From Octopus vulgaris (taxonomy: Eukaryota), in NCBI GenBank assembly GCA_951406725.2, contig OX597832.1, positions 64,666,001-64,730,000 on the forward strand: 64,000 bases of DNA, given 5' to 3'. This document shows positions 3,647-5,236 of the stretch, piece by piece. A program made the translations under genes and the position numbers. How positions within the stretch are numbered: the stretch's first letter is position 1; every line of letters starts with the position of its first letter. Below the pieces are notes generated by a model. It saw only the letters and a list, made by a program, of their open reading frames with translations, was not told where the DNA came from and did no database searches.

Positions 3647-3832
3647 TGTATGTATGTATGCATGAATATATGTGTGTATGTAGATATATATAAATACATG
3701 TATGTATCTGTATGTATACATACATGTATATATATATATATTTATATATTAATATATATACATATATATATATATCTTGCAAACAACTTGCACATGCAAG
3801 TGCTACCAGTTAAAAGCTCCGTATATCGGAAG

Positions 3833-3944
3833 CTAGCAAGTGTATGGGGTCATCAGGAGAGAATGCGCGCCGTTTCGGGGCCTACCTCTCGACGGCATCA
3901 ATGCGCACCGGCCCCCCTCACTGATATGAGGCCCCGCTTGCTAG
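3833..3944 (-). ncRNA. Structured 3' UTR RNA with hammerhead core boxes in non-canonical order (candidate ribozyme)
   Basis: Minus strand reads GCCGUC-GAGAG...GGCCCC-GAAAC-GGC...CUCUC-CUGAUGA, closed by CUAGCAAG/CUUGCUAG. Confidence 0.45.
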
Positions 3945-3964
3945 ATCAGCTGGTTATGATGAAC

Positions 3965-5170
3965 TCAATATACTTCTAGCCATCGCTCATCGTCTCTTTT
4001 TAACCAAATCCAGTGGCTAGCCTTCTCCACTGTAGATTGGATATCAGTCATGGTGGTATTGACTTTACGATGAGTTAGGCCTAACGATAACAACAGTCGT
4101 CTCACGCTGTGCCCTACAAACCCTCTACATCCGACTTCGATAGGAAAATGTTCCGCTTTCCAGCCTGCGTCTTCATATTCCTCGAGGAGGTTTTCATAAC
4201 GGTTTAATTTTCGAGCTCGAGCGGCGTCCATATTATCTTCGTGAGGAACCGTTAGCTCGACTATATTTAAAACTTTCTTTCTTTCACACCACATCAAAAT
4301 ATCTGGTTTTTTCGAAACTGGGATGGGAAAGAAAACCTGGCACCCAGGCAAATCTGCAGTTACCTCCCAATAGTCGTTCCACTTTTCATTTTTCTCAGGA
4401 AGTTTCTTGGTCTTCTTCTTGAAACGGATCTGCTGACCTGGTCGCACGAAGGTAATGAACTCTCTTGATGGTACTTTTAACGATTTTTCCTCAGTGTTGT
4501 TGAGATGAATTTGATTCTTTATAGCATTGAAGATAACCTTAAGGACCAAGTTGTGCCTCCATGTGTACCTGTTCAATGCTAACGAACAGTTGGAAAGAAT
4601 ATGTTTTAGTGTACCGACTTTTCCACATTTGCAGACGTCATTCTCTAAGACGTTCCATCTTACTAGATTCGTAGGTGATGGCAAAACATCATAAGATGAA
4701 CGAATCAGGAAACTCAGCCGAGATGTTGTCCACTTCCACATCTCATCCCAACTTATCTTCCTCTCAACAACATGTTCTTCCCATCTCGTCATCTGACCTT
4801 GATGAACACATCGGATCAAATGAAGCTCTCTTCTCTCTGCTTCTCTTGTTTTGACGCTGTTGCTAACAACAGATCTGCGTTCACACGGCATCATGCTTGC
4901 AAACGGTCTGAACTGATCCGCGCCAAAACCAAATCCTTTCCGATGGTTCTGCGTTGCTCCCACCATATCTCTGTGTGTAAGAGAAGACAAGATGTTGTCA
5001 GTTTCTGCTTCTGCTTTCCACTTCCTGGCTGTTTTCACCTCTGGTGGGTTACGCCTGATTTCCATATCCTTCGATTCTCTCAGCATCATGACCGTCCGTA
5101 TCTTCCCCAACTTATATATTTCGACTATTGATGCTATTGGTAACTGCAACGAACCTCTTTTACGATAAAG
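3965..5170 (-). CDS. C-terminal part of RLE retrotransposon protein (post-RT region, CCHC zinc knuckle, PD-(D/E)xK nuclease); no real start codon
   Basis: Uninterrupted frame [11 protein letters not shown]...ARKWKA, then CKC-x7-H-x4-C ([16 protein letters not shown]), [40 protein letters not shown]. These motifs are typical of HERO-clade proteins. Confidence 0.88.
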
Positions 5171-5192
5171 ATAAAGATAAATTTATATATTA

Positions 5193-5236
<44 letters not shown>

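Follow-up and report, generated by a model that had tools for sequence, protein, structure and literature searches.

Two types of non-circularly permuted hammerhead ribozyme, SGC and CSG (HRIMA-1), were described by Eckert et al. 2023 (PMC10085705). Type SGC is known only from metatranscriptomes and type CSG only from soil DNA, neither from a named animal, and ribozymes of these types cleave in vitro at 0.004-0.19 per min. In type SGC the conserved CUGAnGA runs straight into stem II, a block that the authors assumed to be uninterruptible; a single extra U at A9/G10.1 is common in the type (PMC10085705). The consulted part of Perreault 2011 (PMC3088659) describes core insertions of only 1-2 nt. 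Among mobile elements, R2 uses a self-cleaving RNA to free the element RNA from a longer transcript, and the circles of retrozymes yield multimeric cDNA (both PMC7761336). Naiad Penelope-like elements have been reported to be without canonical hammerheads, eight of them being marked "half core" (Craig et al. 2021, PMC8557442). LINEs with a restriction-like endonuclease have a single ORF encoding an N-terminal zinc finger, a reverse transcriptase (RT), a CCHC knuckle and a PD..E.K endonuclease (PMC5678591), and the HERO clade is described as dispersed and not gene-specific, with some microsatellite bias (PMC4640811). We found no report of a split block C in the literature searched, which was mostly other than subscription journals and bioRxiv supplements, and no tested precedent for a break at A9/G10.1 in the literature read. 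The same search, with subscription journals mostly outside its scope, returned no report of type SGC or CSG in animal genomes and none of a hammerhead in the 3' UTR of a LINE with a restriction-like endonuclease; the supplement of Eckert 2023 was covered mostly by term search only.

The window analysed here is a stretch of 64,000 nucleotides of Octopus vulgaris DNA. It contains a LINE insertion with the following parts.

3772..5171, minus strand: 5'-truncated copy of a single-ORF LINE with RT and restriction-like endonuclease, comprising the final 1.4 kb of the unit, which is about 3.74 kb long
3965..5164, minus strand: C-terminal ORF remnant, amino acids 714-1112, with CCHC knuckle and PD..E.K endonuclease motif; stop codon at 3967-3965
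3740..3775, other copy 5181-5216, no strand: target-site duplication of 36 bp in a TA microsatellite, read directly

The insertion at 3772-5171 is 99.6-99.9% identical to young full copies, whose unit measures about 3738 nt and encodes 1112 amino acids in one ORF. The ORF protein (P0001) matches RVT_1 in Pfam (E 5e-19), its best PDB matches are R2 proteins, over the RT only, and its N-terminal zinc finger, CCHC knuckle and PD..E.K motif were all three read by eye. It does not have the telomerase-like RT and GIY-YIG endonuclease of Penelope-like elements. From its sequence the host element is a restriction-like-endonuclease LINE of a young family with intact ORFs, which supports the preliminary description of this DNA as to the class of host. 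Its copies are dispersed and not gene-specific, with some microsatellite bias, which fits HERO behaviour.

The nearest named relatives of the LINE protein are unlabelled fish proteins with 37-40% identity, and relatives with 50-65% identity were found as proteins only, with no UTR sequence. When a 61%-identical relative was used as a query against the source genome, apparently only the window LINE's family was returned, judged by places and identities. A search of viral contigs for closer relatives with a 3' UTR gave none, and one of metagenomes gave a single contig without a 3' end. Six host-derived LINE loci were found in prokaryote assemblies: L331 and L332 end too soon past the ORF, L329 and L330 are without a C-terminus, and in L333 and L334, which have the flank and 26-35% identity, the ribozyme motif is absent. 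The presence of eukaryotic-type restriction-like-endonuclease LINE sequence in these six prokaryote genome records (L329-L334) is probably due to contaminating host DNA.

The region 3833-3944 lies 20-130 nt 3' of the stop codon of the ORF remnant, that is, in the 3' UTR on the minus strand. The preliminary description had placed a full set of hammerhead boxes and local pairings here, and all of them are at the places it gave. The triplet GUC is at 3893-3891, GAAA at 3876-3873 and CUGAUGA at 3856-3850; in stem I, GAGAG (3890-3886) pairs with CUCUC (3861-3857), giving 6 bp counting one G-U, and in stem III, GCCGU (3896-3892) pairs with ACGGC (3873-3869). The two upstream GGGGCC runs that it had named as partners (3935-3930 and 3915-3910) are also present, as is the pairing of the strand after CUGAUGA with the upstream GGGG. 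The sequence contains seven helices, and its parts, in the order of the transcript and all on the minus strand, are as follows.

3944-3937, minus strand: P1 5' strand CUAGCAAG, partner CUUGCUAG at 3840-3833; peripheral and family-specific
3935-3932, minus strand: P2 5' strand GGGG, partner CCCC at 3849-3846, directly 3' of CUGAUGA
3916..3931, minus strand: inserted hairpin, joined with 0-nt junctions to the 5' strands of P2 and stem II on either side
3910..3915, minus strand: stem II 5' strand, displaced upstream; G10.1 is 3915, partner GGCCCC at 3882-3877
3908-3903, minus strand: 5' strand GUGCGC of the helix bridging stems I and II, partner GCGCAU at 3868-3863; pair probability about 0.96
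3885..3896, minus strand: block S, with the stem III 5' strand, GUC, the predicted cut 3891/3890 and the stem I 5' strand
3869..3882, minus strand: block G, with the stem II 3' strand, GAAA and the stem III 3' strand
3846..3862, minus strand: split block C, with the stem I 3' strand and CUGAUGA, then the P2 3' strand in place of stem II
3818..3830, minus strand: small hairpin whose loop (3827-3823) is complementary to 3927-3923 of the inserted hairpin
3787..3800, minus strand: terminal hairpin, within which (3795-3796) lie the 5' ends of three tandem copies

The two complementary loops form a possible kissing loop, which would block pairing of the hairpin loop with CUGAU. It is family-specific, the pairing being seen in the window LINE's family only, where there is a recurrent change at 3826 from U-A to U-G and an older subfamily keeps G-U. 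A recurrent change from U-A to U-G is also found at 3834, in P1. In pseudoknot-free folding P2, the bridging helix and stem III appear at about 0.9; stems I and II cannot appear in such folds. Of the two pairings that had been suggested earlier as a competing simple hairpin, UGCGC/GCGCA turned out to be the bridging helix and hence part of the ribozyme. The other, AUCAG/CUGAU, does reach a probability of about 0.55 in the pseudoknot-free ensemble, but no counterpart was seen by eye in other families, and the hairpin as a conserved switch was rejected.

No hammerhead model of Rfam matches the site. The cyclic C-G-S order and the pseudoknot-free three-way junction of types I, II and III are absent, the order being S-G-C. 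The general features of a hammerhead are all present: the CUGAnGA, GAAA and UH boxes, adjacent stems I-III, as well as the G10.1-C11.1 and U16.1-A15.1 pairs. The site shares with type SGC the order S-G-C, both pseudoknots and the helix bridging stems I and II (the "I" helix of SGC), and the linker from stem I to stem II is short in both (1-5 nt here, typically 3 in type SGC). It differs in that the stem II strand does not follow within 1-2 nt of CUGAnGA; the opening in the chain lies between A9 and G10.1, the 5' strand of stem II comes first, 60 nt upstream, and two extra helices, P2 and the inserted hairpin, hold this displaced strand. A further difference is that cleavage is predicted here and has been measured for SGC. 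The window ribozyme would thus work like SGC while falling outside SGC proper. In the geometry that we infer, P2 is stacked on the inserted hairpin and passes across the core at A9/G10.1 as in a four-way junction, in which A9 would still stack on stem II. The earlier reading of a pseudoknotted monomer with a branched stem II is supported; its other suggestion, a new hammerhead topology, holds in part, since the S-G-C order is already known as type SGC and the novelty lies in the interruption of block C and in the class of host.

The same wiring occurs with different letters in four other repeat families of the source genome (B, C, D and a Naiad-motif family), with which the window LINE's family is 41-44% alignable. 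A box pattern without the window family's stem I gave 60 genome matches, versus 10 for a reversed control pattern; 50 of the 60 were retrieved, about 24 of them belong by eye to the window LINE's family, and most others fail the descriptor. Six natural copies from the five families (the window LINE, B twice, C, D and Naiad-motif) were tabulated, and 161 of 162 pairs hold; the representatives are the best-preserved copies and the partners in stem II, bridge, hairpin and P2 were found by search, so that this count is partly by construction. Both sides change across the five families at 24 of 27 pair positions, including all three tabulated pairs of P2, and covariation is present in stems I-III (with best copies chosen and the alignment anchored on the core). 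The three invariant pairs are those of the core, G10.1-C11.1, U16.1-A15.1 and G16.2-C15.2, the first being kept in 6/6 representatives. The junctions are tight in all six copies, with 0-2 nt between A9 and P2, 0-1 nt between P2 and the hairpin and 0 nt between the hairpin and stem II.

With the three boxes fixed, the descriptor scored 93.5 at the window site and 63.0 for the best shuffle, so that 0/3000 shuffles reached the observed score; the same was found (0/3000) for each of 5 representatives. As a viral-contig control, 0 of 121 box-pattern matches passed the descriptor, 37 of them having a scoreable site. The descriptor thresholds were set after the examples had been seen, and strict fits number 29/30 in the window LINE's family, 11/18 in B, 1/13 in C and 0/12 in Naiad, where P2 is weak. 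Within the LINE family (97 copies), none of the 75 positions in the core or helices carries a recurrent change, versus 8 of the 118 elsewhere in the UTR (Fisher p 0.024, the copies being non-independent). On these grounds the fold is real and more than chance.

Families B (L112-L131, L085, L097), C (L102, L304-L316) and D (L093, L284, L286, L293) are high-copy T-rich repeats, B having a unit of about 0.9 kb and being seen as a partial tandem in L130 and inverted in L100/L101. Pfam searches of 89 and 29 frames found no RT or GIY-YIG domain alongside the B, C, D and Naiad-motif loci, and no ORF was found in B-D; the three are candidate large non-LTR retrozymes. Other repeat families (L082/L111, L088/L283, L108/L110 and L098/L287) have the three boxes in S-G-C order with decayed or absent stems.

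Whether the ribozyme cuts can be approached from the ends of its genomic copies. At least 726 exact copies of a 21-mer spanning the predicted cut site were found in the 2.8 Gb genome. A cut between 3891 and 3890 had been predicted in the preliminary description, and a genome pattern search for copies lacking all three triplet letters gave nine matches, each of which begins precisely at 3890. Upstream of eight of them is flank foreign to the element, and the ninth (L394) is a join from unit position 2177. At a control site 10 nt downstream there were 2 matches, both longer mutated copies, and 0 true starts; this was the one control position used, and its 18-mer is more CpG-rich and hence less sensitive. 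By our estimate, the truncation rate would lead one to expect about 1 start at 3890; the Poisson p is 1e-6 for a mean of 1 and 0.004 for a mean of 3. The start pattern catches about half of such copies, so that about 20 are implied. The R2 RT adds an untemplated A at an RNA end, and the T that precedes 8/9 of the copies starting at 3890 would fit such an addition at a real RNA end. The nine starts are indirect genomic evidence of cutting in vivo, and cleavage in vivo appears very probable to us. Two other clusters of 5' ends, three tandem copies at 3795-3796 in the terminal hairpin and six copies at unit positions 33-60 in the 5' UTR, are possibly RT stalls or a transcription start.

The full copies of the LINE are partial tandems, in which a 3' fragment of variable length is followed by a full unit. 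There are 32 loci with a 5' UTR (two of them a segmental duplicate), of which 29 continue into the 3' end of a previous unit, 3 stop inside the 5' UTR and 0 start at unit +1. Of the 30 loci with a junction, 24 extend across the cut site and 6 end before reaching it, with 0 starting there. The 3' ends are ragged, reaching 0-8 nt into the next unit, and no locus with two unit junctions was seen. Both 3' ends are available in 17 tandems; the overlap exceeds 400 nt in 7, and the 10 shorter overlaps mostly carry no information. In 6 of the 7 no other copy shares more of the upstream copy's variants than the downstream one does, whether it stands alone at the top or in a tie, and 5 of the 7 share variants found only in that pair. 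Gene conversion between the tandem halves could also make them alike; the sharing of private variants indicates that the tandem has been remade repeatedly from one template, and together with the lack of a fixed 5' end it points to a circular or pseudo-circular template. The exception is L033, whose upstream half matches another copy (L012) and not its own downstream half. Seven copies (L344-L348, L353 and L354) are internally deleted with varied breakpoints and keep the partial-tandem form, the two halves of L346 carrying different deletions. Because the halves of L033 are of different lineages, a monomer circle cannot give them, and L033, L394 and the internally deleted copies indicate that the RT also jumps between templates. 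In L038 (C11) and L028 two element fragments are inverted at one insertion, as described for Penelope-like elements.

We propose, with a probability of about 0.6, that a type-SGC-like pseudoknot opened at A9/G10.1 cuts tandem transcripts and that the unit RNA is circularised and then copied by the RT for more than one turn of the circle. If the upstream fragment of the parent exceeds about 175 nt, its transcript would carry two ribozymes. If both cut, the product would be a monomer of about 3.74 kb with a 5'-OH and a 2',3'-cyclic phosphate. Monomers left unligated would be primed at the unit junction and be the source of the 119-nt copies beginning at the cut; ligated ones, primed at the junction on TA-rich targets nicked by the endonuclease, would be copied round and so regenerate the partial tandem. 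The ligated circular step, taken by itself, has a little better than even odds in our estimation. A ligated monomer would account for the tandem form, the end positions and the shared variants.

Given the RT jumps seen in L033, L394 and the deleted copies, the main rival is a linear template. The ribozyme would then be active, cutting upstream and often leaving the downstream site uncut because of a slow rate or a protein cover, and the RT, on reaching the cut 5' end, would jump to the redundant 3' end of that RNA or of a different one. Such jumping is what the two lineages in L033 suggest; L394 records a jump into the unit's interior from the exact cut site, the internal deletions attest to frequent jumps, and SGC rates are slow. 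This would however require jumps to be nearly always successful and seamless, since the cut is the start of 0/30 junction loci and lies within 24 of them, and the 3' ends keep next-unit sequence that erosion of a linear RNA would lose. We regard a linear template as rather unlikely. Less likely still, in our view, is a fold that is real and has lost catalysis, serving as a structure, derived from a hammerhead, for binding or packaging by the RT protein, with the starts at 3890 as RT stalls. All long copies do come from RNA that was continuous across the site, the break at A9/G10.1 could distort the core, and the three ends at 3795-3796 suggest that stalling at structure could be another source of 5' ends. 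The catalytic letters and G10.1-C11.1 are nevertheless kept in families with unrelated proteins or none, and 9/9 starts fall on the exact scissile bond, which makes this explanation improbable.

It had also been suggested that the RNA acts as a dimer of canonical hammerheads, as in the minimal Penelope ones, and dimeric cleavage is known for Penelope-like elements (PMC7761336). A canonical stem II has 0 pairs here: the CCCC after CUGAUGA and the GGCCCC before GAAA are both rich in C, which precludes their pairing in cis and in trans alike, and the dimer reading was rejected. A chance arrangement was considered as well, the UTR being rich in G and C runs, and was rejected because of the 0/3000 shuffles, the 0/121 viral matches and the covariation across families. 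The recurrence of the same wiring with other letters speaks against both, and we consider either one extremely improbable.

The fold was also compared with the published Naiad consensi (PMC8557442 File S5). The 19 places holding CTGATGA were judged by eye, with no computation and with line-broken motifs missed, and 8 of them show the split-block-C wiring: Beroe (with a stem I of only 2 bp), three near-identical Acropora, one other record, Naiad-4_Dst and two Octopus (with weak P2). Among the rest, Euprymna fits partly, two nematode places are type CSG, and eight are in ORFs or do not fit. The 3' end of Naiad-2_Movir also fits the split-block wiring by eye, using CUGAGGA, and a listing of CTGACGA gave three further type-CSG cases by eye. 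The Octopus Naiad motif has 274 matches in the source genome, versus 0 for a control. In all, about five nematode Naiad 3' ends in File S5 are, by eye, complete type-CSG hammerheads with a bridging helix; nematode Naiads may be the source of the CSG ribozymes known from soil metagenome DNA.

Taken together, the sequences point to a known kind of ribozyme that here takes a new form and occurs in a new class of host, where it probably serves replication by cutting and circle formation. A broader proposal, which we make tentatively and at slightly under even odds, is that this is a seventh natural hammerhead wiring with a block split by a four-way junction; that it is the missing ribozyme of animal Naiads; and that an R2-class LINE has captured it and now replicates via a ribozyme-made circular RNA of 3.7 kb, as an autonomous, protein-coding retrozyme. 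If true, non-circularly permuted ribozymes would extend from anonymous metatranscriptome RNAs into animal genomes, and the stated rule of an uninterruptible CUGAnGA block would be broken. It would also explain the Naiads that were scored as being without hammerheads and would remove the main argument for Penelope hammerheads as dispensable passengers. The young family with intact ORFs makes both the function of Penelope-type ribozymes and the origin of partial tandems directly testable, and, for R2-class engineering, it offers a LINE of the restriction-like-endonuclease kind as one that may copy circular RNA. The whole split-block class escapes descriptor searches built on the canonical order.

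The window LINE combines features of several known systems. It shares with the Penelope-like hammerhead elements the 3' UTR position, the partial-tandem insertions and the TA-repeat targets (PMC8557442), but the known Penelope hammerheads, which lie in pseudo-LTRs, are minimal type I (PMC8557442) and that of the window LINE is a split S-G-C, and the host has an R2-like RT with a restriction-like endonuclease instead of a GIY-YIG protein. With the non-LTR retrozymes it has in common one hammerhead per unit, tandem units and a proposed cycle of cutting, ligation and copying round (PMC7761336; bioRxiv 10.64898/2026.07.22.740005); those are non-coding, 150-300 nt long and of type I, whereas the window element is autonomous and 3.74 kb long, and the split-block wiring is not described in the consulted part of bioRxiv 10.64898/2026.07.22.740005. 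Like the R2-group LINEs it has a single ORF with RT, CCHC knuckle and restriction-like endonuclease. The R2 ribozyme is HDV-like and at the 5' end, whereas that of the window LINE is hammerhead-like and in the 3' UTR of an element whose full copies have no fixed 5' end.
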